A stretch of 64,000 nucleotides of DNA from Tricharina praecox (GCF_024521635.1 NW_026250413.1:1-64000); one strand, 5' to 3'; positions 16,501 through 63,285 are shown, counted from the first letter of the stretch. The notes: generated by a model from the letters alone, not told the origin. Numbers and translations are program-made.

Positions 16501-16711
16501 TCCAGTCGTTGGACATGTAGTTGAATAAGTACGGTCGGCTTGTCATGGAGCCGTGGTCTGCCAATCTTCGCCTTTCTTCGCTTTTCCTGCGGGGCTGTAG
16601 CCATTCAAGATTTGATGATTAATAATCAGCTATTCGTCGTCGCGGGCATAGATGGCAGGTAGATACGCTCCTCGTACCACTTTATAAGCATCGAATTGAT
16701 GTATCCAGCAC

Positions 16712-16865
16712 GGAAAAAACCCCGCGTGGTCTAGTCGTTTAGGCCACGCAATCAGCGAGGGGAGCTGACGGAAAGGTCCCAGTTCAACCTCGATAAAACG
16801 ACCTGTCTATTCAGCTCTTGGGGTTTTCAAGCCACCCGCCGGGGGTGGTGACGGTTTTTGTTTTT
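16712..16865 (+). ncRNA. Putative Pol III structured RNA / SINE-like element, copy A (type I)
   Basis: TTTATAA at 16681; starts GGAAAAAACCCC; A box TGGTCTAGTCG; B-box-like AGTTCAACCTC at 16781; GGGGTTTTC closes the 5' stem; 3' hairpin GCCACCC-GCCG-GGGGTGGT followed by TTTTT. Confidence 0.6.
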
Positions 16866-18624
16866 GTCATTGTTTTTGGCAAGACAGGTGGAGCACAGTA
16901 TATCACTCGGTATAAGGATGTCACGGGATGGAGTCCTCAGCCTTATGTACGATCTTCGACTCCGAGTCGCAACGTCGGGCCAGGTGCTGGGGAACAGTAA
17001 GATCTCGCTAGGCCGTACGCATGAAATAAGGTATTGGTACTCTGCTGGGGCGGGTATAGGGAAGTTGTCGGCGTGTGGAGTGGGAGGACACCGGGCGTGA
17101 GAATATATTACTCCGCGATATATCAGGCGCGGCGACTTGTGTCCGGATGGCAGGCCGTGGGAGCACGTGTGCAGCGAGCAGTGATTGCGAGCCTCGCTCG
17201 AGTATGAGCGGAATTTCTTGAGATGGCGGGATCCCGGGGACCTGTGCCGATGAGTGGTTACCACTGACGAGTACAGCGATCACCTCCCATCCATACAACT
17301 TCGATTCTGGACGAGCCGACTACAGCTATACAGCTACAACTATACATTGTAATCGATATATGGTCGATATACGCAATAAACAAGCTTATTTCGACCGGCA
17401 GAGGGAGGGCCAGGCGGGCCGCCGGAGGCCCGGGAAACAAACCGGCCGGCGGCCGATATTAACATATTAACGGAGAATCGCTGCGGAGGACGAGTAATCT
17501 GCTGTATACTTAAGTACACTACGCCGTACATAAAGCACAGCTAAATCCCTTCGGGTCCCCCAACGTTGGAGCTCTTTGAGAGTCACGAATCGGCATTGCA
17601 CACCAACCAGAAACGTCAAACGAGACCAACGGACTTGGAAACACGGATATCACCAACGAACACGGATCTTCGAAGGGCCCGTTGAGTGAGCTGCAGAGCA
17701 GAGATACTAGCCGCCACGGAAATAGCGAGAAAGAGAAAGCCGCCTCCGACGATCGGGTCACCCCCTCAGTGCACGCCGACGGGATCACGCTCGATGATCG
17801 ACAGCTCGTTCGCATCGATACAGCGCATGCACGCATGCACGAGTGCTCACGTTCCCTCCTCGAGAGTCGACCGACCCAAACCCGACGGACCTATGATAGA
17901 GTACCGCCGACCAGCGCCATCCCAGCACAGGATATCACTCGCCTCTCTCACCAACGGGCATATTATCCGGCCTCCCATGGCACGCCGGCGATCCGGTCTT
18001 TCCACGCCGCCCGATCCCTGCCCCCGCGGAGCTCAGGCCCGAGATCCCGTTGTCCCGAAATCTCGCCTGGCGCCGCGTATCAGAATGATTGGGGGGTTCT
18101 TACTACACCGTTCTATACCCACACGCTACCGCGGAATTTGTCCTCCAGCTGCCAGCCACTCTAGCGGTACTCTACCTGTCACGCCCGGGCTCGGAGTACT
18201 CTAAAGGATGCGGAGTCCGGATACGGTGGTGCAGGTGCAGTAGGTACGTAACTATGAGCGAGCGAGTGTTGAATGGCGGGTACGGACGGACGGACGGCAT
18301 TACGAGGTGACGCATTACTATAAGTGCTGTACTATAGTTTCCACTCGGAATCGAGATGGAGGTAGCAGCAGAAAGATGTTCGTGCACGCTCGCCCGCGGG
18401 AGGGGGGAGAAAGCACAGGAGCAACAATTCTTCACGGCAGCTTGGAATCCTGGGATTCGCAGTCACTCGGATTTGAAGATGGGTGTTGCGCAGCGGCAGC
18501 AACAGTCCGAGCAAAGAGGGTCCGCCCGTCACCGGGAGTGCTAAGGCTAATGGTTCACCGAAGAAAAGTGGTACATACTACTGGCTGAACGAACGCCGAA
18601 GCCGGCGCGGACTTTGAGCAAGTG

Positions 18625-18880
18625 TTCGACATACCTAGTCCACCCGTCCTGAGCCTCGGACTTGACTGGACTGTATCTTGGCAGTCCGCCCGAAGGCGGT
18701 GCTCGGACAGACTAGTCCAAGATAAATCGAGGCCAGGACGGACTGCAGTCCGCACCCAGTCCACGAAATGCATGGACTAGACGAACTGCTTTTACGCAGT
18801 CCGTCCTAATGGCCGGACTGGACCGGATATTGGCAGTCTGTCCAGTCCGGACTACAGCACGGACCGGACTATGTCTCTGC
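18625..18880. mobile_element. Degenerate non-autonomous DNA transposon (MITE, hAT-like subterminal repeats)
   Basis: Dense GGACTG/CAGTCC motifs in both orientations. Right end GGACTATGTCTCTG; left end only weakly matching. No TSD identified. Confidence 0.45.
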
Positions 18881-19170
18881 TTTGAAAATGACGAGCTGGA
18901 CTCAGAACCTCCTCGGAAGACTGCCGGAAGCCACTGTGCTATCCTTATCGCGGACGGAATAGGTTCAAATCACTGATTCACTGCAGCCATCCGAGTTTAT
19001 AGGTAAGGAAGCAATATATAGATTATCGCCACACGATCAAACATTATTTACACAAAACAACAACCAACCATGCAAGTAATGCAACACACCGATCTATCCT
19101 CCCATCCAGCGGGCAAAGGAAACACGACCCCCCCTTTTCAACTCCTACCACAAGACTACCTCACGGACAC

Positions 19171-20373
19171 TTAAAGAGTGTAGCAAGTGGTCCTCTGGAC
19201 CTCGCACATGGAGAAGTCGACGGCACCTCCCTTGGCGCTCTGCTGGCTGCGGATGCACTCGTTGACGGCATCGAGACACTCGTTGACGGTCTGGGACGCG
19301 TTCTTGGCGGTGGTAGCGGCAGCGGCAGCAGTAGTGGTGCCACGGGTGAGGGTAAGAAGAGTGGTCGCCGCGGTGGTGGCAACGGGAGCCGCGGTCGCAG
19401 CGACGGTGGTGGCAGCGGTGATGGTGGGCTTGGCGATGGAAGTGGTCGCAGCGGTGGGGACAGCGGTGGTGGTGGGCACCTCAGCGTAGGCAGTGGTGGC
19501 GGGCTCCTCGACGACGGCGGTGGTGGTGGCCTCAACGGCAGCGGTGGTAGTGGGCTCCTCGACAACGGCAGCGGAGGTAGTCGGGACGACAGCAGCGCTG
19601 GTGGTGGAGCGCTCAGCGGCGGCAGAGGTGGTGATGGGATCAGCGACACTCGCGCCTCCGGTGTACACGGCCGGGCCGGGAATTGTGTAGGTGGTCAAGC
19701 CGTTGTAGATGTCGACCTCGATACCGGGGTCAGTGGCCGAGTACGCACCGGGGAAGTTGACGCCGGTCGGGGCAGCGGATCCACCACCAGTGATGACGAG
19801 GTTGGCACACATGGGGTAGAACTGGGCGCCGCCCACGGTTCCGGCGGAATGGAGAGCCAATATCTCGTGGCGGAGCATGTAGTTGCCCGCAGCGATGTCT
19901 GACGGAAGGGTCACAGTCCACTTGTTGCCAGCGGCGATGAGCGTGTCGGACGCCCAGGTGGTGCCGTCGTATCCGGCCTCGTCGATCTTAAAGAAATCGA
20001 GGGTGGTGGGATCAGCGGCAGAGCAGTCTCCATTGCAGTTCGCGAGGTAGGTCATCACGGGTCCCTTGTGGGAATCCGGCCACGTGGTCCAGGCGAACTC
20101 GACCTCGGCGCCGGCGGCGACGGTGGCGGAGATGGGCGCAGCGGTGGCGGCCTTGTTGCAGACGATGTCGCTGGAGCTGACATCCTCGACGGGGCCGTTA
20201 CCGGCGGTGGGGAAAGACCAGACGATACGCTCGGGAGTGGGGGTTGTGTAAGGGTCCTGGTAAGGCAGGTAGCCGCTGTATACAGTGCCACCGATGGTAA
20301 GCTCGTTGACGATTCCGTGGGCGGCCGAGAGGGCAGCGGCGCCGAGGGCGGCGAGGATGATGGACTGCTGCAT
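19171..20373 (-). CDS. AA9 (GH61) lytic polysaccharide monooxygenase with Thr/Ala linker and C-terminal 4-Cys module
   Basis: Signal peptide then His1 (AA|HGIV); NGPV, SHKGP, FFKI, RHEILALH and GAQFYPMC AA9 motifs; intronless. Confidence 0.96.
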   Translation of the reverse strand: MQQSIILAALGAAALSAAHGIVNELTIGGTVYSGYLPYQDPYTTPTPERIVWSFPTAGNGPVEDVSSSDIVCNKAATAAPISATVAAGAEVEFAWTTWPDSHKGPVMTYLANCNGDCSAADPTTLDFFKIDEAGYDGTTWASDTLIAAGNKWTVTLPSDIAAGNYMLRHEILALHSAGTVGGAQFYPMCANLVITGGGSAAPTGVNFPGAYSATDPGIEVDIYNGLTTYTIPGPAVYTGGASVADPITTSAAAERSTTSAAVVPTTSAAVVEEPTTTAAVEATTTAVVEEPATTAYAEVPTTTAVPTAATTSIAKPTITAATTVAATAAPVATTAATTLLTLTRGTTTAAAAATTAKNASQTVNECLDAVNECIRSQQSAKGGAVDFSMCEVQRTTCYTL

Positions 20374-23311: not shown

Positions 23312-23469
23312 AAAACAAAAACCATCACCACCCCCGGCGGGTGGCTTGGAAACCCCAAGAGCTGAATAGAAAGGTCGTTTCACCGAGGTTGAACCGGGAC
23401 CTTTGCGTCAGCTCCCCTCGCCGATTGCATGGCCTAGCTAGACCACTAGACCACACGGGAGTTTTTTCC
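23312..23469 (-). ncRNA. Putative Pol III structured RNA, copy B (type I)
   Basis: Minus strand: TTTATAG upstream; GGAAAAAACTCCC-GTGTGGTCTAGTGG (A box)...GGTTCAACCTCGG (B box)...GGGGTTTCC, 3' hairpin, TTTTTGTTTT. Closely similar to copy A. Confidence 0.6.
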
Positions 23470-24769
23470 GTGCTGGATACATGAATTCGATACCTATAAA
23501 GTGGTGGGTCTAACCCACGCGACGGACAAGCTCCGCCACGAAACTTTCTACGCTCGAATGAATGATAAGAACAGCGCAGTAACCACGGCTAGGCCAACGG
23601 GCTATTCGGCGTCACACAGCTGGTAAGTATCGTTGTCCTTTGCCGTCCTTGGATGTTTGGACGGCCTATGGTCTTCCTACAGCCGGTACGCTTTGCGCTC
23701 CCATTCCATCCTACAGTATCAGGCCTGGCGCGCCGCGGATACCATCTATTGAGCACGCCGGTCAGCCATATGAGCTCCTAAAAGCCATATATTATCAACT
23801 GCGAGTGATACCGTCACTCGACGTCGGGTTGCTACCCCCAGTTTTCCACGCTCGACACCAGTTACAAGGTAGGTATTCCTGGGTTACCAACTTGCTGATC
23901 CGTCACGGATGCCCGGCGCCAATCTAAGCCCGCCCACACACCGGGGCTTGAAAGGGGATCTGCTCGCCCACGTCTTCCTTTCACATGTGATGTATCATAT
24001 GTACGAGCTATTCCGTATGCGCAGGTTTAGGGTTTTCAGTGACCGTTGTTGTAATATCTCACTCGTTGCTTAACAGCCGTTTACGCAGTCATGACGTCGG
24101 GAGCACTGGTCGCCTACCAACCTTCTTTTATGTATTCTCTCGAGGCTTCAGACTCTCACACTACAACAACAATATACTTGCTCACACATTCTAGCAACCG
24201 TCTGCTGTCATGTGCTCACGCGATGACCCATGAGTACTGGTAGATACATTGTAGGTGGGTACTGTGGGACACAGCTGAGACCGACGACTTGGCGGTCGGT
24301 TTCCATACCTGCGCTGTGGACCTGGGAGGGACCTACTGCAATAAGATGTCGTAAGTCGGTTGGGACCCGCTGCATTGCGTGTGCAACCATGTACAGAGGT
24401 CTTTTGATTTGAGCAGAGAGTAGGAATGGCTGATGCACGAGCGGCGAAATTTCGCCGACCTGGCTAGACCCGATGCAGTGGGTCCAAACGTTGAGAATGC
24501 TCTTGTATATATTGCCGGTGGGTTGCTTGTTTTCTCATTATTTCTTTTCATCGTTCTCATTAGTTTGCTTTTCGTTGTGGTTCGTCCTCAGGATCTCGCG
24601 ATTCAACTCGCGACCTTCTTGGATCTCCTGAAGAACATAGGAGGCTCCTTTTCTCTACTTGTCGTCTTCTCTCTAGTGAAATACAATCGGTCCCCCATCT
24701 CTTACCGAAGTTGCCAAAGGGTCATCACGGCCCCAGTGGTGAAGACTTGCTTCCGCTGTTTTCCAGAAT

Positions 24770-25450
24770 GCAATCTGTCGAGAGAAACTCACTAATACGT
24801 ACATCTTCGGTGCTAAGTCTTCAAGGTCAGCACCAATCTCAATTGCTCGAAAAGAAGTAGGTTGTCCTCCATCAGCATTGAAACTCCCTACCGTATGTAC
24901 CTCTCAAGATGCTACAAAGTCTGCGAGCATACACGCAAAACACTGTGAAAACCGATTCCTGAAGAGGAACTTACTTTCGCTGTTTTCGCTTCTCACCGTG
25001 TCGAGAGAAACTCGTTAACATATGCATCTTCACTTCAGCTTTGACGTCATCTCCAACATCGCTTCCTCGAACGTAAATTGTGCGTGTCCTTCCCCTATTC
25101 CTCCCCCCGACTTCGTAGGATGGCGATACACACACCCCTGTGGCGAAGTGATGGAGGAGCTCTCGGTGAAAGGAAGAAGTGAAGGAGTACTCCTGTCGGG
25201 GGGAGAAAACGAATGTGGTTAGTAGCGGCGGGCATCAACGTTGGCAGGCATGGCGGGGTCTTCTTCTTCTTCTCCTTTGTCTTCTTCTTTCTCCACCATC
25301 ATCTACAGAATATATATACGATCAACCTCTATCTTCTCTTTCTTCTGTCTTCCGTATGTGCCCTCCTCTCGATCCCGCCTCCAGCCTGGAGGGGTGTTGG
25401 CAAAAGAGCCGTCTGCAAAACCGCCGCGATCCTCCAACCCGCCGAGATCA
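24770..25450. repeat. Dispersed repeat family 2 (degenerate, possibly coding-derived), copy 1
   Basis: Colinear with 39340-40020, e.g. TCTTCAAGGTCAGCACCAATCTC...TTGCTCGAAAAGAAGTA and TCCTGAAGAGGAACTTACTT. Also shares CATCATCTACAGAATAGACGATCAACC-like and TTGGCAAAGAGCC motifs with 22730-22850 and 57200-58000. Confidence 0.75.
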
Positions 25451-28400: not shown

Positions 28401-28726
28401 TGTCTTTCGCTCCTACATACACACTCTACATACCATACCATACCGTCGCCCACACAGTGCACACACAGATAGATATACCTACCGTAGTTACGCACGCCCG
28501 CCCGCGCCCGCGCCGTATCCGAAAGGTCCGATCCACATCCACATCCACATCCTTCGCTCGCATCACATCGAACCGCGACCGCGACCGTAGCCAAACTCGC
28601 ACTACACGAACCACCACCACCACCGCCGCTGCCGCCGCCGATACTCCCAACGGAGATCGCTCGTCACCCCTTATCTCCGGCACATCGCCCTTCCACCCCC
28701 GGATTGTCGGTCGGAGTCAACCCGCG

Positions 28727-34475: not shown

Positions 34476-35639
34476 CTAGTAGCAAGCAGCCCTCTGCGCC
34501 TCACAGCTCGAAAAGTCCACAGCGCCACCGCGCGCGCTCTGCGCATTGCGGATGCACTCGTTGACAGCGTCGAGGCACTGGTTGATGCTCTGCGAGGTCT
34601 TTGTCGCGCCTGCGGCGGGTGCGGTGGCCGGGGCGGTGGTCGACGTGCGGGTCTTGGTCATGAGCGTGCTAGGGGCCGCAGTAGTGTAAACGGGAGCCGC
34701 CTTGGAGGTCGTAGTGTACATGGGCTTGGTCACTGAGGTGGACGTGGGCTTGATGGTCGCGGCGGTGGTGGTGTACACCGGGACGGCGGCGGATTTGGTG
34801 GCGGTCTTGACGGGGACGGCGGTCGACTTGGTGCTCGTGGGCTTGACGGACACGGCGGTGGTGTACACGGGCACGGCGACGGAGGTCGAAGTGGAAGTGT
34901 AGATGGGTGTTGCTACCGCGGTGGTGGTAAGGACCTCGCTCGTGACCGGGACCTCGGTGGTGGCCGGGACCTCAGTGGTGGTGGGGTAAGCAGTCGTGGT
35001 GGGGACAGCAGTCGTGGTCGGCTCAACGACAACAGCGCTGCTGGACGGGGTGCTGCCGGATCCTCCAACCACAAAGTCGACACACCCCTCGTAGGTCTGG
35101 TCGACACCGGGGGGCGCGTACCAGAACCACTGGATGACACAGTCACCAGCGGTAGTGCAACCGTCGAGGTCGGCGGGCACAGTGATCTCAAAGCTAGTCT
35201 CGTCTGCGGTGACGCCGGTCGACGTGCTAGCGTACGACTCCCAGGTCTTCAGCGCAGTGCCGACGACGCTGTTGCTCTTCGTGTTGACGATGGAGACGTT
35301 TGCGTAGCCGGTGTGGGGCGCGCGGATGTCGACCTGCATCTGGATCGTCTCGCCGGGAGTGTATGTCTGCACGTTCGCCGTGTTGTCGTCGAACTGGTAG
35401 CCCTTGCATAACCACAGGTTGCAGGCGTCCAGGTCGGTGATCGAGCTGGCCGACTGCATCAGCAGCTGGATCGGCCCCGCCTGGTCAGCCTTCTGGTTGT
35501 TGTAGATGGTGTTGCCGCAGGCGGCTTCATATGCCGTTCCCGGCGTGCGCGGGGTCGGGCTGACGATCACACCGTGGGCCGAGACGGAGGAGAGGAGGCT
35601 GGCGAGGGCGAGGAGAATGGTGGGGGTGGTGAACTGCAT
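34476..35639 (-). CDS. AA16 LPMO/copper oxidoreductase with Thr-rich linker and C-terminal 4-Cys module
   Basis: Signal peptide then His1 (VSA|HGVIVSPTPR); AA16-type motifs ACG...YNNQ, CNLWLCKGYQF, DIRAPHTGYANVS, CVIQWFW, DQTYEGCVDF. Confidence 0.92.
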   Translation of the reverse strand: MQFTTPTILLALASLLSSVSAHGVIVSPTPRTPGTAYEAACGNTIYNNQKADQAGPIQLLMQSASSITDLDACNLWLCKGYQFDDNTANVQTYTPGETIQMQVDIRAPHTGYANVSIVNTKSNSVVGTALKTWESYASTSTGVTADETSFEITVPADLDGCTTAGDCVIQWFWYAPPGVDQTYEGCVDFVVGGSGSTPSSSAVVVEPTTTAVPTTTAYPTTTEVPATTEVPVTSEVLTTTAVATPIYTSTSTSVAVPVYTTAVSVKPTSTKSTAVPVKTATKSAAVPVYTTTAATIKPTSTSVTKPMYTTTSKAAPVYTTAAPSTLMTKTRTSTTAPATAPAAGATKTSQSINQCLDAVNECIRNAQSARGGAVDFSSCEAQRAACY

Positions 35640-49789: not shown

Positions 49790-51996
49790 CTATAGTTCCC
49801 ACGGTCTACCATTATGCCTTACAATATCCTCGGGCAACACATCAGCCAGTGGCTCTACCACCTTATGTACCAACCCCATCCAATTGTCCACGGTCTCCCG
49901 ACGTTCTGCTTCCACAACATGGTTTGCTTCCATCATGTCATGGACGGCGTGAAGCTGTTGAGTAAGACGTTCCCTCAGTTGGCGTAACCGAAGAGAGCTT
50001 CTGGCTCTGACGCTTTCCACCTCTGGTCGTTCCTCCGACTCCACTGGTGGCAGCGCATGTCCCATCGTCTCGTAAACTTCAAACCCTCGGTCCGCAAACA
50101 AAGCGACATACGTCTGCCACCGGTCCTTAGTGAGAACCTTCGTTCTCGAATCCAGGTGAAATATGTGGCGGCAAGGAAGCAAATATTGCCGGGAAAACCT
50201 ATTACAGTTAATTTCATATCAACTTCATTCCTGTAGTGTTGACCTACTTGCAATGACACGTTAAATCTTGGTCAAAAACAGGAGCCTCCTTCCCCTGGAC
50301 AATTCTATCCATGACGCCATCAACCTCCGGGCGCAGTAACTTTTGCACCGGGCGTGGAAATAACCCGACTTCTGGATACTCGCAGTTGCCGATGAAGTAA
50401 CCATTGACACGGAAGTCATTCAGGGCTTTCTGTGCGGTCGAATCTCGGCATTCTGCTTGTTGCATGATGTCGAGAATCATGTCCTTGATGCCTAGATTTA
50501 AAAATTGTTAGAATAATGTAACAAGTCAAGTTTAGAAGAAAAATTACCATGAATGGTTGCGTCGACGTTTCCTAGTCCAGCACGAGCTTCCAGTTCACGA
50601 TGCCAAGTATCCACACCGTTTGTTGACATGATCTGCTGAAGAAGAGGACTATGAGAGCGCGCATACATGGCCCATTTCCGGGTGGTATCCAGCCAAGACG
50701 TGCGAATGATATTCTTGGTTACCTCGTCCTGTGCCAGGTAGATGGCTTCTCGGCACAGGTCAAGACACCGGTTACGCGTCAACGCGTACAGCGCTTTTCG
50801 TAAAGCATTGAGAATTTGCTTGTCAGCTGCGGACTTGAATCGTGTGTCAAGAGTACGCATCGTGTGGACGGAGCAGAGGAGGTGCTCGACGGCCTGTTCT
50901 CCTCCTTCGGGCCCGGGAAACGCACGTCGAACAGCGAGCTGCTCAACAGCACTATCTTCGCCAGTAAGAACATAGCGAGGTTCCCACCCACACCATTTCT
51001 TGAAAGTCTTCATGGCAAGAGCGAGAATCTCGGGATTTTCTCCCTCCACCACACAATGAGTACCGGGAATCCATATTCCTTGCTCGTTGCGAACCAGAAA
51101 GGAGAACACATTGTGGCCCCACGTAGTAGTCTTGTTGGTGGAATCGAATTGCGTAAAATAGCCCCGTCTTTTGAGGGCCTGAATACGCGTCGGATGCGCA
51201 AAGCAGAGTCCCCAACGAGGCGCACCCTCCGCATCCAACACAGTAAACTCCTCATGTAACCATCCTTTCTCCCCGAGAAAACTGATGGCATCATCAATCT
51301 CCTGCCGCAAGGTAGTAGCCCGATTCAAAGGTATACGATCATCCACTCGGTGGACGCGTCGTGCCACTGCGTTTTGTACGTGTTTTCTAATCAAATCAAT
51401 TAGTATATTAACCAAAATACTCGCTAAAGTTTTTCATGTTCTTACCGGGTCATGTGCGCTCCACCGATCGCGATAAGGCGTTCGGAGCCCTGGGGTGTGC
51501 CGACTCCTTTCAACGTGTTCATCACTTGTGCGGGCTGGTAACCCTTCAACGCTTCCGCTGCCGCCACTTGAATCGCGAGCACCGACGGTGCAATCTCCCT
51601 ACTTCTAGCCAGATCGTGCAGGTGTTCTTCCGCATCCAAGCGTTCGACCGTGACAGTGATTGGCATTTCGATGGTACGCGTGACTTTGATCCGGACCTGG
51701 CAAAGCCCCGGCTGTCGCACTGTAGTTCCGTATCGCTTCTTCACTGACCCCGGATCCTTCGGTGGAGGAGGTTTACCGCCCTTCTTACTCTTCCGCAATC
51801 GGCACTCGTATCGCTGTACCGTGACTTCGCCGTTCCTCTGGATTTTGCTACCATTGAGCTTCGTGTACACCGTACTCACGAGTGGCCAGTACGTGTCGAA
51901 TTCTTCGCCGGTCAGAACAACAGGCGCGGTGAGATGGAACAATCTATCGCACCAAAACTCGGCGTTCTGGGGAATGGGAATCAGAGTTGAAGTCAT
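49790..51996 (-). mobile_element. Mutator-like (MULE) transposase gene with C-terminal SWIM zinc finger, 4 exons
   Basis: N-terminal YECRL...C..RIKV...H.H domain; FDSTNKT, LLCSVH, STNGVDTWH; SWIM CHC..FSRQYLLPCRHIF. Frames joined by GT-AG introns near 51445, 50547 and 50247. No convincing TIRs seen. Confidence 0.88.
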
Positions 51997-53725
51997 GATG
52001 GTAAAGTAGAAGCAATAAGGTAGATGATCTCGTGTTTGTAGTAGGCAGGTAGCAATGGGGATGAAGGAAGTACGAGGATCTGGTGGTACTTTACCGCGTG
52101 CCGTGGGCGTTCACTTCTATTTTCCACAACCAACACAGCAGCCAGCAAGGCACGAGATCGGGCGCTGCGTGCCTGCAGGGATGCTGTATTCGGCAACCAC
52201 TCCAGCCACGGCCACAGCCACACGTATTCTGGTGCACAGACTCCAGAGCCCAATCTACGGATGCCGGCGGTGATGTGACGGTTACGTCGTGTCACGTCTC
52301 ATCACGTGAACTGACGGAGATGCAAAATTCATGACGGAGTTCAATCACCCTCAAGCAACTCAAATCGCTCGGCTGCTATGTAGTCCTCCTACTCATCTGG
52401 TGACTACGGGGGAGAGCCTCGTTTGTCATCTGTGACCAACCGCACATATCATGCAGAATGCGCGGAGTTGGGTCAACTTTCAAGAGGAACGAAGAGCGAC
52501 TATTAAAATCCGTATTCCCCGAAGATGTTTTCCGCTCCACCTATCCCGGCTGAAAGGGGAGCAGCGCCTACTTTGGGAGAAGAAGCCAAGAATGGCACCG
52601 AGGGAAGGGGAAATGATACTGTTGAGCTTAGGCCTGGGAAATATAGTCCGTCCGGACGGAAGACTATTGGGGCCCCGCAGCGCCGTCCCGTCTGGGGCGA
52701 GGATTTGGCCAAACGAGTCGGGCTCCGTCCCAGGTCCAAAACGCCCGGGGCCCGAATGGAGCCTCGTGGGGCCCGGACATTTTTAGTGCGGAAGCGGCCG
52801 GCATCCTCAATCCCAGCACCATGGCGCGGCTCGCCGAGATGGACTTCGGCGAGCACACCACGCTCGTCGAGGGTGTGCGCTTCTAACTCCTGCCGGGAGG
52901 GACGACGCGCGCCCCGCGCGGCGTGGTGTCCTTGAAGATTACCGTGCCCGCTGGCGTTGAGGGCGGCCAGTGGCCCGAGGAGATGGACTTAGTGGAGATG
53001 ATGGGGGGGAGGAGGCGCGGGAGGAGGTGCACCAAAAGTAGGCGCAGCACCAGGCGGAGGTGCGGGACGAGGAGGAGGAGGAGCAGCTAGAGCAGCAGCT
53101 GAAGAACGAAGAGAAGCAGCAGGAGGCGGAATCGGAGGAACCGGAGGAAGAGGAGGAACTGGAGGAAGCGGAGGAACAGGCAGGCAACACCAGCCGCCGA
53201 GGTTGTGTGGTGTGATAGAAAATGTTTAAGCAGTAACCACCGTCTAAACGGGTTTACTTTGGTAAATGCCCCAACAGTGGTTACTTTCTTTTCCATCTTC
53301 TTTCATTTTTTCTTCTCGCGCCGCATCCGAAACGGCTGCATGATAGAAAGCACGAGTGAGCAATGATGCACGGCTGCGTCTGCGATCCGGCCGGAACTTC
53401 AAAAAGTGACTGTTGATCTTCAATTGGACCCACCGACGTATCACGCATTCAACTTTAAAACTTCACTGATTCGCCTTGAATCCTCCTCGTCTCCCCACCC
53501 AACCCCCCCACGCGCCTCATAAATAACCCTCCCACCTCCGTCCTGCCATCCTACTTCATCTCTCACCGCATATCTACTATCTGCACACGCCCAGGACGGT
53601 ACGCACAAACGCACAAACGAACGAAACAAAGACATCGATCAATAAACGAACGAAGACATCCATTCACAAATCCCGCAGCGCAATCATCGAAGCACCTTAA
53701 ACAACCACACCAAGTTTCAACAAAT

Positions 53726-53953
53726 ATGTCTGGAAATCCCGTCAACTGCAAGATCTGCTTCAGCCCGATGCCTTCCACGACGGGCCCCACGCTGCAGCCC
53801 TGCGGCCACAAGGGCATCCACGACGTCTGCTGGGCCAAGAAGACGCGCGACGGCACCGAGAAGACGCCACTGTGCCCGGTCTGCGGCAAAGAGGTGGAGT
53901 GGGTCGTGAGAGCCAATATCCAGGTCGTCGTGGGTAGTGATGATTACCTGTAG
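53726..53953 (+). CDS. 75-aa RING-H2 finger micro-protein, copy 1
   Basis: C-x2-C-x14-C-x-H-x3-H-x2-C-x14-C-x2-C. Strong codon bias, CATAAATA upstream (~53517), and a conserved paralogue at 59996-60223. Confidence 0.8.
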   Translation: MSGNPVNCKICFSPMPSTTGPTLQPCGHKGIHDVCWAKKTRDGTEKTPLCPVCGKEVEWVVRANIQVVVGSDDYL

Positions 53954-54404
53954 AGTGTCAGGGGGGGGGATTTGGCTTGTACTATATGGAGTTTCGCTTT
54001 AGATACTTGGGGGCATACGCTGCCTGCGAAGCTGCGCTTGGATAGCTGAATATCAAATCATCGTTCTGAAACTTCACACACGTAGTTAACGGTTGCGAGT
54101 GATCTCCTATGCATCATCCATTTGAACCCGACGTGAAGAATTTGCCGGAATACTATCAGCAGTGCTGTGCTCCAAATGGATCGAGTATGTACCTACATAT
54201 ACGGCTTCCAGAGAATATGTAATCACTAAGCTGCAATAAATCGTCGACGAGGCTGTAGCCTGCCATGTCAGGTACTTCCCCACCTGCTAGGCATACTAAC
54301 GGCAGCAGCTGATGGTACATGCGATACACGCGCAGAAGCCCCCACGCAGTTGAAGGTGGCAATGATGATGCAACAAAAAAAAGAACTGGACCGTGGCTCG
54401 AACC

Positions 54405-54516
54405 AAAAACCTTCACCACCCCCGGTAGGTGGCCTGGAAACCCCGATAGCTGGACATCGGGGTGTCCAGCTAACTCCGCCGGGTGCGTGACCACTCGGCC
54501 ACGCGGGGTTTTTTCC
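54405..54516 (-). ncRNA. Putative Pol III structured RNA, copy D (type II)
   Basis: Minus strand: TTTATAG upstream; GGAAAAAACCCCGCG-TGGCCGAGTGG (perfect A box); hairpin TAGCTGGACA/TGTCCAGCTA; GGGGTTTCC; 3' hairpin; TTTTT; then GGTTCGAGCC (B box, 54404-54395). Confidence 0.62.
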
Positions 54517-55139
54517 GTACAAGAAGTTTGAACTCAAAGCCTATAAACTGGTGGGTACCCCGTGATCTACAATAACAACAACGAAGTTACGCCCGCAAAA
54601 TTGGAGCGTCTAGATGATTGTGCCATCTCACGCCGCGGTATCAGCCATCACAACACCGTCAACAGCTCATCGCATCCACTCCACAGTACCGAGCTCATGG
54701 AATCACGCTCGCCATCCATCGCGAACAAATCCACCACAAGCCAAATCCAAATCTGCGGCAAGGCGAGGTTATGTGCGTTCAACGGCGATCGCCGATAAGG
54801 GTGGGAGAAACGAAAAGAGAAATCGTTTCTTTGAGCTGCACCCAGACCACGCTAGCCCATGGACAATACCCATATCCTCACATTCAGACGTTTCGAGAAG
54901 CTACCGGTCCGCGCATCCATATGATCATGTGGGTTTAGATGAAGGCCCGGCCGCAGACCGTGCTGCCATCAGCAACACCTTGTGGCCCGTGCATGCTGTA
55001 AGCCATGATCCTTCATCTCCTGCCCCAACGTCCGTTCCCTGTCCGCAATTGAGTTCTACGGGCATTCACTCAATCCATCGTGGAAGTGGGTACTAACTAT
55101 GCTCACGCGATGCGATCATGGCTATCACTCGCACTTATC

Positions 55140-55249
55140 CCCCGGGTCCCGGTGGGATGGCTTGGAAACCCCGATAGGTAGCTGGACCGGTGCCGCTGTC
55201 CGGCTAACTCCGCTGGGTGCGTGGCCACGCGGCCACGCGGGTTTTTTCC
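55140..55249 (-). ncRNA. Putative Pol III structured RNA, copy E (type II, 3'-truncated)
   Basis: TTTATAA upstream, GGAAAAAACCC-GCGTGGCC/GGCCACGC hairpin, AGC(C)G/CAGCT stem, GGGGTTTCC. Lacks the terminal T-tract. Confidence 0.5.
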
Positions 55250-55538
55250 GTGCTGGCGATATGAACTCGAAAGTTATAAACTGGTGGCAGTGGGTACCCC
55301 GTGATGGACAAGATGGATAATAACAACGACGATGGCACGCCTGCGGCCCGCCAGATCGTCGGCTGGCATGACAGCAATACACAAAGGATAAAGCAGCAAA
55401 TCCAAGCTCTTCACAAAAAATTCCATCCTGATTCCCGCACCCAGATAGAAAGACAAACAAGCAAAACATCGCGCATCGCATTTCCGCCGCCACGTCTTTG
55501 CCCACTTCACGCCTTTCTTTACCCCACCTTCCTACCTA

Positions 55539-55702
55539 CTGTATAGTGAAGGGGGGGGTAAAAATACGCTTTTTGGCGTATCGGTACGGTCAAATAGCGT
55601 ATAAATACGGTCAAAATACGTATTTTCACCGTATCGATACGCTTTTTTCTGTATCGGTACGGTCACAAAGCGTATTTTTTTACCCTCCCCTTCACTATAC
55701 AG
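55539..55702. mobile_element. 164-bp MITE with TA target-site duplication (Tc1/mariner-type)
   Basis: TIRs CTGTATAGTGAAGGGGGGGGTAAAAATACGCTTT ... AAAGCGTATTTTTTACCCTCCCCTTCACTATACAG, flanked by TA at 55537-55538 and 55703-55704. Internal GTATCGGTACGGTCA repeats. Confidence 0.88.
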
Positions 55703-55748
55703 TAAGTATGTACCTACCCCCAACCAATCAATCAACCAACCAACCAGC

Positions 55749-56568
55749 CTACGCCCTCTGCAGCCCCCCAGCCCACTCAGCCCAGTCCAAGCACTTCGCC
55801 GTCCTCGGCGCCACATCGCTAACGTCAGCCACGAGCCTTGTGAACCTTGGTAGTACCGTCCGCATCTGCGTCGTACGTGCGGGGATCACTTTGCGGCGCC
55901 ACCGGGTGCCCGCGTCCTGCACAATCCATAGGAAGCGGAAGTCCGTACGGTCGCAGTGCAGGTGGGCGGTCCACGCTTTCCAGTTGCGGAGGAATGTGTG
56001 CTCGGCGGCGGCGGGGGTGGTGGTGGGGGTGGTGGGGGTGAGGGTGAGGTGGAGGCCTACGACTACGGCTTTGCTGCTGGTGCTGGTGCTGGTGCTGGTG
56101 CTGGTGCTGGTGCTGCGGGCTCAAGCTCGGTACACCAGGATTCCAGCCACGGCGGAGGCGCGGGAGGTGGTGGTTGAGGGGATGTACAGGATCCAGCCGT
56201 CGAAATCATCTCGCAGCGGCGGGGGAACGTCTCCTGAGAACACGCGATGACTCCCCGCCTTGTTCGCGAACTCGGCCAGCGGCAGGGCAGCCTTCGTGCA
56301 GGATCGTCCGGAGCACGAGGTACTCGACGCAGAAGCCCATGGCGGCTGTGTTGTCGCCGCTGAGGCGTAAGCTAGCCTCCCACTGTGGGTCGTCGACGTC
56401 GCGGATGTCGATAACGCCCATAGCTAGAAGCAGCCCTTTCGCTACGTGCCGTGCGAAGCCGCGGGTGGCATGGCCGATGCCGGATCGGTCGACGAAGAAG
56501 TAACGCCAGTCTAGCCGCTTGGAGCCCGTGGTGGACACTTCGCGGTTCAGCAGACATGCGAGCACCAC
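55749..56568 (-). pseudogene. Remnant of a Crinkler-like gene (C-terminal PD-(D/E)XK-type domain)
   Basis: DWRYFF...N.AAMGFCVEYLVL...I...G, then after a frameshift FDGWILYIP...AVAGILV..*..AVVVGLHLT...AEHTFLRNW...FRFLWIV. In-frame TGA at 56123-56121. Family assignment is from motif recall only. Confidence 0.5.
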
Positions 56569-56853
56569 CGACGTGCAACTACACCGCGAATAAGTCAGTG
56601 ATTGGTGTGTTTACGCACGGCACTCATGCTCGGCGAGAACAACTCACGCCTTCATCTTCTCGCTAGACAACCGTTTCGCATTACTCTCCCAGAACTCAGC
56701 GATGCTCGCGATCAACGTGCGCACTTCAGCGGACCTGCAAGCACCGTCGTAAAGCTGGTCTATTACTCAATCCACAACAACCTTTCGCCACGTGCACTGG
56801 CTGGGGTCTGTCACAGCAGCCGTAGCAATTCCAGGCTCCAGCTCTTAGCCCTA

Positions 56854-58871
56854 GGGTACAAGGAATGAGTGAATCACTCATTGACTGCACCCGAAATGTC
56901 GCAGAATGAGGTGCTCCTCATTTGGTGACAGAGACGCACCGTGCTAGATGCATTATTGCTAGTAAATGCAGCAAACTCGCTCGTGCCGATTGCAGTGATG
57001 TTAGTAAATGCGAATCTCATAGTTAATACGTCGATGGTGGTGGTGATGAATGCGCCATTGTCATGGAATGCGTTGTGGTATGTATAAGAGTACTACCTAG
57101 TCGGCGAGAGGAAACCGATGTAGTTAGTGTGGATGGTTAGGGCAGCTAGCAACGGGGAGGCAGCGAGGAGGCAGCGAACTTGAAGGCTGTCCGAGAGGCC
57201 TCATCTCTCTCTCATATCATCTTCATCGTCGTCTACAGGATATACGCCTCCCCTCCCTCTCTCTCTCATCATCATCTACAGAATAGACGATCAACCCCTA
57301 CCTCCTCTCTCTCCCGTCATCACCATCCTCTACAGGATAGAAGATCAACCGCTACTGACGTCTGCCACCACCATGAGAGGGGCATCTGTTTGTACGATGG
57401 GTAGATGGAGGTTATGATAAGATAGGAGGAGGAAAAGCTCGTGGGATCGGTGGGATCGGTGGGATCGGTGGGATCGGTGGGATCGGTGGGATCGGTGGGA
57501 TCGGTGGGATCGGTGGGATCGGTGGGATCAGTGGATCCGAATGGTGGTGTCAGCCGGACTAGCCGTATCGAGTGACACCGAACGTTGTAGGCAGCGGAGG
57601 AGAGCCATAAGATAGCTCCTCAAAGTTGAACCTACGTCATCCTTCTCTCTTCATCATCTAAGGAATAGACGATCAACCTCCACCTCCCCCCTCCCCCTCC
57701 CCGCCTCTCTCTCTCGAGCTCTATCTCTCTCTCTCTCGAGCTCTATCCCTCTCTCATCGTCATCTACAGAATAGACGTCTCCTCTCTCTCTCTCTCTCTT
57801 CATCAACCTCTTCCCCCTCTCTCCCTCTATTGTATCTACTGTAATGAGAGCACTATATCCACGGCGAGGACAGTCTTGCGAGGGCTCTTTGCCAATGCCT
57901 CTCCGGCCTACCCCGCCATGCCCGCCCCCCCCGCCATACCCACCAATGTTGATGCCTACTAATAACCATATTCCTTTTCTCCCGCCGACACCTCCTCCTT
58001 CACTTCCACATCTCGCCAACAGCTCCTTCTCTACTTCCCCCACTTCCTCTACCCGCTGACAGCTCCTTCTCCACTTCCTCATCTCGCTGACAGCTTCTCC
58101 ATCACTGCCTCCTCTCTCTGACAGTTCCTTTATCACTGTGTCTTCCTCTTGCTCCCCCTATCGCTTCCTCCTGTCATCGATAGCTGCTTCTCCACGTCCC
58201 CCACTTCCTCCTAACCAACAGCCCCCACCCACACAGACAACTGATCCACTACTTCCACAACAGTGTGGTATTCGCTACAAGACTGGGTTGATGTTGTAGG
58301 ACTGCATAGGAGGACGAGGCGAGAACAGCGAGGCCAGCGTGGTATCCGCAGTGAGATGACAGTGATATCCGCGGCGAGACTGAGCTGACTATTCTACGGC
58401 CGCATAAGAAGACATTGCGAGGACATCGCCGAGAGAGGGTGGTATCCGCGGTGATGAAGATCTGGTATCTGCGGCGGAGAGACTGTGGGAAGACCGAGGG
58501 CTGACCGCCAGCGCAGGACAGCGGGGAAAGCGGGGAGGAGAGGGTCTATCTGTGGTCGGTGAGGGCGGTACGCTGCGGCGCAACGTGAGGACTGCATAGG
58601 AGAACAAGGCGTATAGTACCACATGTGAATGTAACGCATTTTATAACACTGCAAATTACCCAAAATATCGCATTTTGCAACAATACCATCTCAAAACCCA
58701 GCGCATTCTGCGTCTTGTCGCATTCATCATTATGCTGCATTGAGTGACATCTCCGTTAATGCGACATCTTGGACCTCATTCCATTCACTAATTGAGTGAA
58801 CTCATTTTAGGATGGTGTTTCTTGCGACCTCATTGACCATAAAATGCTGGTTTCCCTCATTACTTGCACCC
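56854..58871. mobile_element. ~2-kb non-autonomous TIR element
   Basis: Ends GGGTACAAGGAATGAGTGAA and (reverse complement) GGGTGCAAGTAATGAGGGAA, 17/20 identical. Both junctions read CCCTAGGG (TA or CTAG duplication). Subterminal AATGAG/CTCATT repeats at both ends. No transposase. Confidence 0.75.
57441..57538. repeat. 9-bp tandem repeat (GTGGGATCG)n
   Basis: About 10 near-perfect units. Confidence 0.95.
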
Positions 58872-59418
58872 TAGGGTAGGAGCTATGATGGACCCGCCAT
58901 GTACAGTGCGCAGCCGGAACGAGCGCCAAGTGTTCGAAATAAACTTGTCGAGTGACCACTGACCATAGGTATCGCCGGTCAGTGACTTTTGTGGTATGAT
59001 CATGTTTCTACGGAAATCTACTGTATCGGACCCTGTGAGGAGGAAAGATAACAGATCTCATGTTACTGGTGATCTCGCGCGCCACCATGCTTGGCCCGAG
59101 TGATCGAATAGGTACCTAGATTGCCCTCGTTCGTGGCCTTGGGGTATTTATATTCGCCGCAGCCTGCAGGATTTGTTCGCGATGGACGGCGAGCGTATTC
59201 CATGAGCTCAGACTATGTAGTGGGTGCTATGAGGTGTTAACGGTATTTTGATGTGACTCGGAGCGTCTCGCAGGCGATACCGCAGGTCCGCAGTGTGAGA
59301 TGAGCGAATCATCCAGACGCTCCGATTTCGCGGGCGTGACGTCGTCGTTGTTATTGCCCATCTTGTCGATCACGGGGTACCCACCAGTTTATAACTTTCG
59401 AGTTCATATCCCCAGCAC

Positions 59419-59558
59419 GGAGAAACCCCCCGCGTGGCCGGGTGGTCACGCACCCGGCGGAATTGGCTGGACACCAGCACCGGTCCGGCTATCTATCGGG
59501 GTTTCCAAGCCATCCCACCGGGCCCCGGCCGGCCCTGGCGGGGGTGGTGAAGGTTTTT
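59419..59558 (+). ncRNA. Putative Pol III structured RNA, copy F (type II)
   Basis: TTTATAA at 59388; GGAGAAACCCCCCGCG-TGGCCGGGTGG; TGGCTGGAC/GTCCGGCTA stem; GGGGTTTCC; expanded 3' GC-rich hairpin; TTTTT; then GGTTTGAGCC. Confidence 0.6.
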
Positions 59559-59995
59559 GGTTTGAGCCACGGGTGAGGTGTTTTGGTTTTGTTTAAGCAT
59601 CACTGAATTCGACGTTAGTTGCCAGTGGATCATGGCAGATTACATTATTACATATGCGTCTCCACCCGGCCGGCTGTCACCGCACAGACCGCTAGCTACG
59701 AGCACGATTCCAGCTCCCTATCGCTCTCCGGTCAGTCCTCCCTACCAGTCAACCGTAAATGTACATACTCGACCCATTCGGAGCACATCACTGCTTACAG
59801 TATTGCGGCAAACTCTTCACGTCGGGTTCAAATGGATGATGCATAGGATATCACTCGCCACCGTCTCGCTTCTGTTGCAGAACGATGATATCAATTCAGG
59901 TACCCAACCGCTGCTTCGAATTTAGCATATACCCCCCAATTATGTAGAACAAAACCCCCTAGGCTGCGCCAATTTTCCCGCCGACACGCCACAGG

Positions 59996-60223
59996 CTACA
60001 GGTAATCATCACTCCCCACGACGCCCCGGATATTGGCTCTCACGACCCACTCCACCTCTTTGCCGCAGACCGGGCACAATGGCGTCTTCTCGGTGCCGTC
60101 GCGCGTCTTCTTGGCCCAGCAGACGTCGTGGATGCCCTTGTGGCCGCAGGGCTGCAGCGTGGGACCCGTCGTGGAAGGCATCGGTCTGAAGCAGATCTTG
60201 CAGTTGACGGGATGGCCGGACAT
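59996..60223 (-). CDS. 75-aa RING-H2 finger micro-protein, copy 2
   Basis: MSGHPVNCKICFRPM...; 9 nt differences from copy 1 (5 synonymous, 4 non-synonymous); all Zn ligands retained. Confidence 0.8.
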   Translation of the reverse strand: MSGHPVNCKICFRPMPSTTGPTLQPCGHKGIHDVCWAKKTRDGTEKTPLCPVCGKEVEWVVRANIRGVVGSDDYL

Positions 60224-61693
60224 GTTTGTTGGAACTTGGTGTTTAAGGTGCTGAGATGATTGCTGTAAGGGATCGATGGTTGGTTGGCTTCGTCCGTTTG
60301 TGCGTTTGTGCATATCGTCCTGAGCGTGTGTAGATAGTAGATATGCGGTGAGATATAAGGTAGGATGGCAGGACGGAGGTGGGAGGGTTATTTATGAGGC
60401 ACGCTGGGGGGAGGGGTGGGGCGAGGAGGATTCAAGGAGTATCAGTGAAGCTGAACAGTTGAATGCCTGATACGTCGGTGGGTCCAATTGAAGATCAACA
60501 GTCACCCGCTTGAAGTTCCAGCCGGATCGCAGAAGCAGCCGTGCATCATCGCTCACTCGGGTCACAAATCGATCTGGTTGTGCCGATGCAGCTACTACCC
60601 ATTGCATAGATAGGTCGCACTCAATCAATGAATGAAGAAAAGAAAATACTACCCACTGCATATGATGGGCTGGAACAGCAACGTGAGACTAATCCGTCCA
60701 GGCCGAAAATCAGGGAAGCCGTGTGTGTAGAAGGGACTGTAGAGAAATTTTATTGCACTACCCCGTTTAAACATCCTGAAGCCTATGTAGATACATTGTG
60801 AATATCGGCTGATGGGTGCACGTACATAAGGCCCGGCGCTCAGCTGCATACTAACATGACCAATCCAATATAATCCGCCTAACGGGCAAGGCTCCGTGCT
60901 ACAGACTCTGTCGTCCGACCTGCCTCCTCGATGATGCTCGGCTGTATCCGCTTTCTCGCCCTGAAGGGTGGCTCTCACGCTCTCCCGAGTCCCAGTCGAT
61001 TGCCGAGATACCTAAGTATCACTCGCCGCGTGATATCGCGTGGCCAGCCCGGGCCCTGTTCGTGTTCGGAGTCCGGATTGGGTTAATAAACTGCAGATAT
61101 ATATATCTCTCGCTTTTGTTCGGATTGGATTGGGTGCTGAGACCAACCGTTCCCAACCACGAAACCAAGAACTCTCCGTCTTGATCCGGTGTCCCCCCCG
61201 CCTCGTGGCCCATCCAGTCTCGAGTTTCCACAATTCTCGGAGCTTCAGTAACTCCAACACGTTACGCCTCCCTCATCGCCACACACGTGACACACCTTTC
61301 GTTTTCCACATCAGCCTTGGTAGACCTATTAGGCTATGCGAAGTGGGGATGTATGTAGCGAGAGATGTGTTTAGCAACGGGGGTGTAGTGTAGAATCATG
61401 GCATCAGTTGGATGATTATTCGCTAAGTGATGTTGCTGGGGTGGTGATGAATCATGATGTTCTTGGTGGGTGCTCGTGGGCTAGGGTTCCTTTTTACTTT
61501 TGTTTAATCATTGATTGCATGCGACCTATCTAGATCATGGGAAATATCCCCTCGTCCTTACCTCAACAGGTGGAGAGAGAGAGAGAGCTTCAGTTTATTT
61601 CGCATGCAGCCTAACATCTCCACGGGTGGCAGCGCAAATCGCGTCACGTGATAGCCAGTACCGAGTGATATCCTGTGCTCCACCCGTGATGCT

Positions 61694-61853
61694 AAAACAA
61701 AAACAAAAACCATCACCACCCCCGGCGGGTGGTTTGGAAACCCCAAGAGCTGAATACATAAGGCATTCACCCGGTTTTGAACCGGGGACTTTTCCTCGGC
61801 TCCCCTCGTCGATTGCGTGGCCCTAGACTACTGGACCACGCGGGGTTTTTTCC
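61694..61853 (-). ncRNA. Putative Pol III structured RNA, copy C (type I)
   Basis: Minus strand: GGAAAAAACCCCGCGTGGTCCAGTAG; perfect tRNA-like T-arm CCCGG-TTCAAAA-CCGGG; GGGGTTTCC; 3' hairpin; TTTTTGTTTTT. Upstream box is degenerate (TTCATAA). Confidence 0.58.
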
Positions 61854-63285
61854 GTAGCAGAGACAGGAATTTGAAAATTATGAAGTGGTGGATGCCCCGC
61901 GACAGAAAGAATAACAACGACGATGAAGGAACACCCGCCAGGCTGGAGAATATTGTGTTTCCCCGCTACCCCCCGGGCCCCACAACTGAGCGTCTAGATG
62001 ATCCTTCCATCTCACGCTGCGATACCTATATGATATGATAAGGTCAAATGCTATGATGATTAAACAAAACAAAAAGCTGCGATATATGTCACCTGCTTCG
62101 ACGCTCCGAGACACTGGCCTCTGAAAAGGGGATGTGCTCTCGAAGAAGCGGAGTACGTACTTTCGATACCTAGGCCGACCCGAGAATACCTAACACACTG
62201 CAGGAATTGCACCGGACACTGTACTTTGTTCTTCACCCGCCCTCTTCCTCTGCGCGGTGTGTTCATCACTTCTCGGTGCCAAGGGCCCAGGCGGAGGGCG
62301 CCGCGGGAGACGTACGGGCTTAAGTCCACACCGAGCCTGCTGCCTGGAGTCTGGACTGTAGACAGTAGCTTCGGAGAAAGGTCGCGCAGCCGAGCCAGGG
62401 TGGAGAGTCAAAAGCCTCGGTATTTAGAGAGAGAGAGAGAGAGAGATCTTCCTGTTTTATTTTGCATGCAGCCTATCTAGACTATGGCGAACCGACGAAC
62501 TTCTTTCCCTACCCTCCGCCCCCGGCCTGTCCCAGAAATGTAGATATACTGTAAAGACTGAAATGGGCCTGCATGTCCACCTCTTCCCCACCTCTCCTCT
62601 CTCCCCTACGGGCTGACTCGCCCACTCTTCCCACCTGCCTTCCGTCCCTTCTATTGAAGGTTTTCCGAATCCTTTATATGAGTCTGGCGTGCCTTTTGCG
62701 GCCTGGAGTCCCTGTTCCCGCCAATGAAGACGGTTAGCCAGACCCCGCCCCTGCCGCTAACTTTATCAGCCCTCGCTGGGACGCTTCCCTCTCTTCCAAG
62801 TCCCGTCCCTCTTTTCTCCGCTTTCCTTTTCCGCTTCCTCTCAAACAAATGGCCACACGTTTCTGTGATTGGGGAGAAGATCTCTTGGCGCGAGTGATCC
62901 AGAGTGAGGCGTCGGTAGGTACCACCGTCGGTCCGCAGGGAGCAGACAATGATGGCGATTTGCAGCAGCCTCGGTTTCAGGCCTCTGGAGTTTTTTTTAG
63001 AAACAACTCGAAAAATAAAAGACAGATTCACCTGATGCCTGCACAGGCACATCCTCGGAATGAGTGATTTTCGGGCGACCCGCGGCTCGTATCCCATCTG
63101 CCCGCTTCGGTCACGGGTAGCCACTCTCGGCAAGCCGCAGTTACGCCCATACGCACACGCACCAACCCGAGTGGGCAGAAACAACATAATATGTACTAAG
63201 AAAACCAAGAAAGGTCAGATCCAGTTAAAAGACCTCCGTCTCCGCCCCCACCGTCCCCTCCAGCTATCCATCCACCGTACGTGCA

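Follow-up and report, generated by a model that had tools for sequence, protein, structure and literature searches.

The window analysed here, a stretch of 64,000 nucleotides of Tricharina praecox DNA (GCF_024521635.1, NW_026250413.1:1-64000), is about 55% G+C, and long open reading frames (ORFs) are sparse in it. Its genes include those for a GH47 mannosidase, two LPMOs (AA9 and LPMO_10) and a protein with a fungal-specific transcription factor domain, together with a MULE transposase fragment. In a protein atlas the clusters nearest to the AA9 protein come from ascomycetes, which marks the window as nuclear DNA of an ascomycete. [quoted passage not shown] The account that we favour, giving it about an even chance of being right, is that of a Pol III-type, tRNA-related repeat, resembling short interspersed nuclear elements (SINEs) and copied together with its promoter. 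Positions within the unit are numbered relative to the proposed GG start; copies A, B and F are of the long subtype (type I), copies C, D and E of the short subtype (type II).

The six copies and their subtypes

All six copies are found where the sequence-only reading had placed them (Table 1). The 17-nt motif GGGGTTTYCARRCCAYC, which provides the 3′ strand of stem P1, occurs six times in the window and in none of 100 shuffles. A covariance model built from the six copies, run with its filters off, finds only those six in the window, with scores of 81-130 bits, the next match scoring 13.7 bits. The division into two subtypes comes from self-BLAST. Within type I, identity is 90% over 194 nt for A and B, 80% over 241 nt for A and F and 83% over 199 nt for B and F; within type II, it is 86% over 206 nt for C and E. 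The 90% identity of A and B extends from -35 to +153, outside of which their flanks are unrelated. Copy D is chimeric, with a type II body and a 3′ module that is 85-87% like type I, and copy C departs from the family inside P4 and is without a T run.

Table 1. Positions in the window of the six copies, of the block shared by the type I copies and of the duplication arms that hold copies D and E
Feature	Position (strand)	TATA-like box	Proposed start	T5	Details
Copy A, type I	16676..16865 (+)	16681-16687	16712	16855-16859	P2 A-box-like hairpin 16724-16749; P3 apical part 42 nt; P1 3′ strand 16820-16828; P4 16832-16848
Block 3′ of the T tract, common to the three type I copies	16866..16912 (+)				GGAGCAC..TATCACTCGGTA
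Copy B, type I	23312..23507 (-)	23500-23494	23469	23321-23317	Three G.U pairs in P2; 4-bp T-arm-like hairpin holding GGTTCAACC
Copy F, type I	61694..61891 (-)	61884-61878 (TTCATAA)	61853	61709-61705	T-arm-like hairpin CCCGG/UUCAAAA/CCGGG; single C x A mismatch in P3; downstream common block to ~61659
Copy D, type II	54405..54554 (-)	54547-54541	54516	54409-54405	P3 apical part 12 nt
Copy C, type II, 3′-truncated	55140..55287 (-)	55280-55274	55249		One C x A mismatch in P3
Copy E, type II	59381..59562 (+)	59388-59394	59419	59554-59558	Two wobble changes in P3; GC-rich 21-nt insertion in P4 loop
Left arm, inverted segmental duplication	53353..54732				Holds copy D and a 75-aa RING-finger ORF (53726-53953, +)
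Right arm, inverted segmental duplication	59169..60559				Holds copy E and a second RING-finger ORF (59996-60313, -)

Promoter-like signals and the predicted fold

A TATA-like heptamer occupies positions -31 to -25 in all six copies, reading TTTATAA/G in five and TTCATAA in copy F, in agreement with the TATA-like box proposed about 30 nt 5′ of the GG start. Just as constant is the A box proposed for the P2 hairpin: an A-box-like TGGYCnnGTnG is present at +15/17 to +25/27 in 6/6 copies. The box cores were taken as quoted in PMC10886601 (TRGCY..YGG for box A and GGTTC for box B) and judged without a scoring matrix. By this standard, the three type II copies all contain the box A core, as TGGCC..TGG, and the type I copies have TGGTC, one letter off TRGCY, with the YGG end in copy B only. 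The GGTTC core of box B lies within the RNA only in copies B and F, where it is part of a T-arm-like hairpin with a stem of 4-5 bp and a loop of 7 nt, and after the T run in copy D. The short subtype is without an internal T-arm-like hairpin; B-box-like motifs follow directly after the T5, GGTTCGAGCC in copy D (54404-54395) and GGTTTGAGCC in copy E (59559-59568).

At the 3′ end, the P4 hairpin is followed by T5 in five of the six copies, and the tract is missing from the truncated copy at 55249-55140 (copy C), as had been noted. The tail is T-rich, (GTTTTT)-like and of varying length. This arrangement agrees with a unit transcribed by Pol III from a mixed promoter. Since the spacing of TATA-like box, start, A-box hairpin and hairpin-plus-T5 is fixed in all intact copies, such a unit can be predicted from the sequence and is likely.

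Stems P1 to P4 are present as proposed, with P4 disrupted in the truncated copy C, and are recovered in single-sequence folds. The folding z-scores are -3.9 for A, -2.8 for B, -4.0 for F and -3.5 for D, and weak for C (-0.8) and E (-1.4). In the model-fitted alignment, 92.4% of the 171 pair cells contain standard pairs, versus 38.6-50.6% when the partners are slid by 1-3 columns. Because of a 4-nt insertion, the P3 3′ strand of copies C and E is misaligned here, so the alignment-based figures for P3 understate its pairing; when P3 is re-read in register, 40 of its 42 cells are paired, with the same C x A mismatch in F and C. P2 is paired in 48 of 48 cells, and four of its eight pairs vary, to G.U only. 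The apical part of P3 folds otherwise in F than in A and B. No reading frame is open in all copies, and the frame of an N-rich upstream "peptide" is not preserved between them.

Three pairs are changed on both sides. One stems from the truncated copy and is doubtful; the other two constitute the double compensatory change in P3 between type I and type II, G-C to U-A and A-U to G-C, which is real, as the sequence-only reading had it. Both of these pairs split the same two subtypes and thus represent one branch of the tree, the other changes being G.U wobbles. The claim of covariation is therefore real yet thin. G.U cells number 13, against two C x A cells in P3 and five at one doubtful P1 column; an excess of G.U over C x A on the sense strand fits pairing in RNA of that strand, not in DNA.

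These regularities are shared by the main rival to the repeat that we favour, in which the copies form a family of structured Pol III small RNAs with a function in the host, maintained by selection and multiplied through segmental duplication; the aberrant copies would then be pseudogenes. Such a family would be the fungal counterpart of 4.5SH and 4.5SI, or of Y or vault RNAs. The constant positions of TATA and A box, the unit's own hairpin and T5 terminator, the completely paired P2 and the two compensatory P3 pairs all agree with it. The differing apical structure of P3 in copy F does not, and the behaviour of the copies as DNA, described below, leads us to consider a host RNA family unlikely.

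Extent of the unit, further copies and other elements

The conserved sequence does not stop at the ends of the proposed RNA. All type I pairs start aligning at -35/-37, just 5′ of the TATA box, and their similarity continues for about 50-70 nt past the T tract, to about +215; in the other pairs homology starts at -60 to -250. The block 3′ of the T tract that is common to the type I copies (Table 1) implies a duplicated unit longer than the proposed RNA, and the size of the unit is about 190-260 bp. Weaker similarity, with indels, extends to about -100 in all copies and to between -150 and -180 in D, E and F. The spacer from -25 to -1 is conserved as much as the RNA part, which points to recent common descent rather than to selection and in this respect also speaks against a host RNA.

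Copies D and E lie in the two arms of a 1.4-kb inverted duplication. Between them, identity is 77-91% in the RNA part, which has additional indels, large ones in P3 and P4, and it is 76-89% in the flanks and 98.7% in the RING ORF segment. The RNA part has diverged like the flanks, suggesting approximately the neutral rate of the duplication, although the stems have changed less than the rest, in our reading about half as much as the flanks. The first of these points disfavours a host-functional RNA, as do the large indels, and the restraint in the stems favours one. The identity of 98.7%, compared with about 76-89% in the remaining arms, makes the ORF appear to be under purifying selection.

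The two RING-finger ORFs match zf-RING_2 with 29.2 and 27.8 bits. Between the arms, the region 55413-58650 is expressed, CT-rich and of low complexity, with a depth of 100-1000 in the two RNA-like runs introduced below; no Pfam domain was found in its ORFs. One soil DNA contig joins 53087 to 55348, omitting 2260 bp that include the left arm and copies D and C; the shorter side of this junction is only 27 nt, and a variant haplotype or an artefact is possible.

Three sequencing runs, a soil-metagenome DNA run (X1) and two RNA-like runs (X3 and X4), were all read as assembled contigs. In X1 the organism is present at a depth of about 5-12, and kilobase contigs match the window exactly. The family's common letter at 61733, a position in the 3′ module, is found in 45 distinct X1 contigs whose depths sum to about 1125; such a sum is not a copy number, and in a metagenome related fungi may contribute contigs. 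The cover is 26 contigs at 54434, 18 at 54496, 12 at 61829 in the 5′ part and 9-11 over the type I body, and at -4, four nucleotides 5′ of the start, only four contigs remain (depth 27.5). Even so, the picture is one of dozens of copies, most with the 3′ hairpin module and few with the promoter region. The family thus exceeds the six members that had been counted for it, and the prevalence of variants with the 3′ module alone, like the existence of truncated, chimeric and deletion copies, does not favour a host-functional RNA. A metagenome match to the 5′ motif, in one contig (L001), was rejected as a chance match inside a bacterial-looking coding stretch. The 3′ module had no matches in prokaryote genomes and is therefore not a common bacterial sequence.

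X3 and X4 behave as RNA: the segment 56579-56647, with CT..AC ends (GT..AG on the minus strand), is skipped in them, and an X1 contig runs through it. Over the RNA bodies of the six window copies their depth is 0-7, from diverged contigs, and over neighbouring genes 100-1000. One contig in each run extends past the T tract of a related copy, at a depth of 34.4 in X3 and 39.1 in X4. Judging from the equal depth, these probably also cover the 5′ part, as a single contig in our interpretation. A deletion variant is also present in the RNA-like runs, as a contig of depth 29 that joins 61711, in P4, to 61834, at the 5′ end, with 32 other letters between. A 151-nt X3 contig of depth 2, from a diverged copy, corresponds to 54396-54514, continues for 35 nt past the proposed start and is uninformative.

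The abundance of the 3′ module over the 5′ part in X1 resembles that of 5′-truncated retrocopies, and the head, body and tail build, with a T-rich tail of variable length, is likewise that of a classical SINE derived from a tRNA, whose own Pol III transcript is retroposed by a long interspersed nuclear element (LINE). The upstream sequence would then have to be shared through local duplication or a shared target. Copies A, B and F share -37 to -1 despite unrelated outer flanks, so local duplication fails to explain the shared promoter; target-site duplications were not found and no partner LINE was seen in the window. Retroposition as a classical SINE is thus very improbable.

The extension of similarity beyond the RNA on both sides would also be expected of a DNA-level repeat without Pol III transcription, whether a solo long terminal repeat (LTR) or terminal-repeat retrotransposon in miniature (TRIM) of the Helenus kind, a miniature inverted-repeat transposable element (MITE), a Helitron-like fragment or a regulatory module. 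In such a repeat the TATA box, T run and hairpins would be incidental or would serve RNA polymerase II, and the contigs that pass the T tract fit read-through in a longer transcript. Fungal TRIMs with tRNA-like LTRs exist, as described in PMC10886601. The ends that define these classes were sought and not found, which makes a TRIM, solo LTR or MITE less likely. In no two copies do homologous positions carry TG..CA ends together with 4-6 bp duplications. The sole direct pair, which could be paired LTRs, consists of C and D, separated by 733 bp; they are only 75-81% alike, which speaks against a TRIM. A repeat finder detected no inverted repeat linking both ends of a unit in the window; the absence of terminal inverted repeats and target-site duplications, and the presence of inverted 45-nt motifs around copy F only, speak against a MITE as well. 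Inspection by eye gave no fit to Helitron-like ends or to a sequence like a primer-binding site (PBS) after the unit. The excess of G.U over C x A on the sense strand also disagrees with a mere DNA-level repeat, which we regard as doubtful, and so do the exact distances between TATA, start, A box and terminator, which we count in 6/6 copies and which are hard to obtain by accident.

The motif of about 45 nt just mentioned (CCATGATCTAGATAGGTCGCATGCAATCAATGATTAAACAAAA and variants) is separate from the unit and occurs five times in the window, at 8978-9029, 48124-48166, 60593-60646, 61497-61548 and 62030-62072. Copy F lies between two inverted copies of this high-copy motif, as a DNA-level repeat might, and the other five RNA copies are without them. 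Dozens of X1 contigs end at the borders of the motif, and X3/X4 bins that contain it reach a depth of 800-2200; it is a very abundant short repeat or a shared transcript segment.

Elsewhere in the window, no Pfam domain was found in ten ORFs near the RNA copies. The ORF at 50498-51415 (-) matches MULE transposase and ZSWIM RNaseH-like weakly and is probably what is left of a Mutator-like transposase. The two LPMO genes, with AA9 and LPMO_10 domains, at 19171-20373 (-) and 34476-35639 (-), have a stretch of 114-160 nt in common, with 70-75% identity, located at the low-coordinate end of each ORF, i.e. in the C-terminal part; the former also contains a 24-30-nt tandem repeat coding for a low-complexity linker. 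A direct duplication of 520-540 bp (24741-25260 and 39315-39845, 80% identity, 14.6 kb apart), with a third, partial copy at 39641-39715, has no relation to the RNA family. A perfect 9-nt microsatellite, (GTGGGATCG)n with about 11 units at 57441-57537, is the source of very high summed depth in the metagenome run.

Interpretation and comparison with known systems

Known RNA families, among them tRNA, 5S, U6, 7SL, RNase P/MRP, Y and vault RNAs and snoRNAs, were searched for in the window. At gathering thresholds, Rfam gives no match in the whole window, and ARAGORN at default settings finds no tRNA. The best Rfam match in E-value mode has 23.5 bits, versus a cut-off of 65.7, and is on the opposite strand; there is no credible U6 match, the Giardia U6 model scoring 16.4 bits, versus a cut-off of 100, also on the opposite strand. 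The earlier failure to match the copies to tRNA, 5S, U6, SRP or RNase P/MRP is thereby borne out, a result that a host-functional RNA of a new kind would share. Together, the two programs recognise no tRNA head, leaving the A-box hairpin and the T-arm-like hairpin. As far as the sequence allows a judgement, relatedness to tRNA appears to reside in pieces only, the A box and the T-arm-like hairpin.

The build in head, body and tail points to a selfish repeat of the SINE-like kind and away from a conserved cellular RNA, and the abundant 3′ module, the aberrant copies and the near-neutral divergence point the same way; the unit most probably has no conserved cellular function. The travelling of the promoter region with the unit, the lack of target-site duplications and the presence of its own terminator argue against a classical SINE and suggest that the copies multiplied as DNA. 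The unit is best filed as a new SINE-like, Pol III-type repeat carrying its own TATA promoter. Of the Pol III structured RNA originally proposed, the layout and a fold consistent among the copies are retained; the thin covariation and the repeat-like behaviour of the copies count against it.

In the mechanism that we propose for this repeat, TBP/TFIIIB would bind the TATA box at -31 to -25, and TFIIIC the A-box-like sequence in P2 and a GGTTC-type B box. The latter would be located in the T-arm-like hairpin inside the RNA in the long subtype, and just past the terminator in two copies of the short subtype. Transcription would proceed from the GG and end in the T5 after P4; the product would be about 110-150 nt long, with P1, P2 and P3 meeting in a three-way junction and with a 3′ hairpin. 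The copies may have multiplied as DNA, together with the upstream promoter, by segmental duplication, gene conversion or some other DNA route or carrier.

Several observations weigh against a SINE-like repeat. A classical SINE begins where its transcription begins, and here conservation extends 5′ of the proposed start. An A-rich tail is missing, and the direct repeats around the six copies, of 7-10 nt, are scattered and do not lie at homologous positions as target-site duplications would. A unit with its own terminator is more typical of a true gene, and the conserved block, from -37 to the terminator, is what selection on a working gene would preserve; a host-functional RNA would have precisely this block, from TATA to terminator, as its functional unit. 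Among one-sided changes in P2-P4, excluding the two compensatory pairs, we count about eight that preserve pairing and two that disrupt it, a bias that is suggestive, not decisive. Rfam in E-value mode, with three copies, gives weak and mostly wrong-strand matches and no tRNA, and with relaxed ARAGORN thresholds placement and isotype differ between copies. The limits on reading the X1 depths as copy number, given above, belong here too. Lastly, no transcript with the predicted ends was seen in the assembled contigs, which cannot show RNA ends; as contigs are equally blind to strand and level, and short non-polyadenylated RNAs are easily lost, we draw no conclusion on expression.

In the boldest reading, the copies would be functional genes encoding a fungal Pol III small RNA of a new kind, with a three-way junction, a 3′ hairpin and an oligo-U end, derived from a SINE- or tRNA-like ancestor taken over by the host, with the subtypes kept by compensatory change. 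Its hybrid promoter would consist of a TATA box at -31, an A box in P2 and a B box that is internal or, as in U6, past the terminator. Mammalian cases of such host take-over are 4.5SH, BC1 and snaR. We think it improbable that the fungal copies are a further case.

SINE-like elements of filamentous fungi are poorly charted, as are their Pol III small RNAs beyond tRNA, 5S, U6, 7SL and RNase P RNA. A repeat with a full Pol III unit, including the TATA box, would show how an element stays transcribable where upstream TATA boxes matter; a classical SINE, in contrast, has to leave such a promoter behind. Should the RNA turn out to be stable and conserved, it would represent a new class of fungal small RNA. 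Whichever holds, the six units provide compact cassettes of a natural Pol III promoter and terminator, and supply a covariance model for annotating such repeats, which gene and RNA finders now miss. Four strings from the element had no match in the papers of the library searched, and the fungal SINE and Pol III literature that was searched contained no description of the family; the supplementary tables of PMC10886601 and PMC5063351 could list relatives.

Vault, Y, VA and EBER RNAs share with the predicted transcript their synthesis by Pol III, a length of about 100-170 nt, 5′ and 3′ regions that are paired and an end rich in U. The fungal unit differs in having a separate 3′ hairpin after the closing stem and in having no Rfam match, so that the resemblance to vault, VA and EBER RNAs seen in the sequence-only reading holds for the general shape and for nothing beyond it. 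The yeast U6 gene (SNR6) has an upstream TATA near -30, an intragenic A box and a B box downstream of the terminator. The TATA-like and A-box-like sequences of the fungal unit are similar, and the motifs just past the terminator in copies D and E recall its B box; U6 RNA itself has no sequence or structural likeness to the fungal element.

The rodent 4.5SH gene has been amplified as a long tandem unit. 4.5SH and 4.5SI genes are described as SINE-related and as requiring, in addition to boxes A and B, a TATA-like box at -31/-24 for efficient transcription, a combination also described for tRNA genes of plants and S. pombe (PMC7279448, PMC10137851). They resemble the fungal family in being multi-copy and SINE-related and in combining a TATA-like box, here at -31 to -25, with A and B boxes, which are putative in the fungal unit, and differ from it in lineage and sequence. 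Helenus/TRIMp3 elements are characterised in PMC10886601 as LTR retrotransposons that are non-autonomous and whose LTRs contain tRNA-like Pol III promoters, with solo copies being common; that source places fungal Helenus in the Pucciniales and a few Agaricomycetes, not in ascomycetes, and gives them paired LTRs, a PBS, a polypurine tract (PPT) and 5-bp duplications. They are alike in having a tRNA-like, A/B-box-like sequence within a short repeated unit copied with its flanks; their paired LTRs, PBS/PPT and duplications were not found around the fungal copies.

A further comparison is with the tRNA-derived SINEs of ascomycetes, which also include Mg-SINE and Foxy. They are, like the present unit, short, non-coding and interspersed (140-490 bp), with A/B-box-like sequences and a tRNA-related 5′ part, and have low to moderate copy numbers and truncated copies. 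AfuSINE2 of Aspergillus fumigatus is described in PMC5063351 with target-site duplications of 4-14 bp and a derivation from recognisable tRNAs. Compared with the AfuSINEs as given in a published table, the T. praecox repeat has no duplications that we could find and is not seen by tRNA models, and it has its upstream TATA box copied along and a hairpin and T5 of its own.

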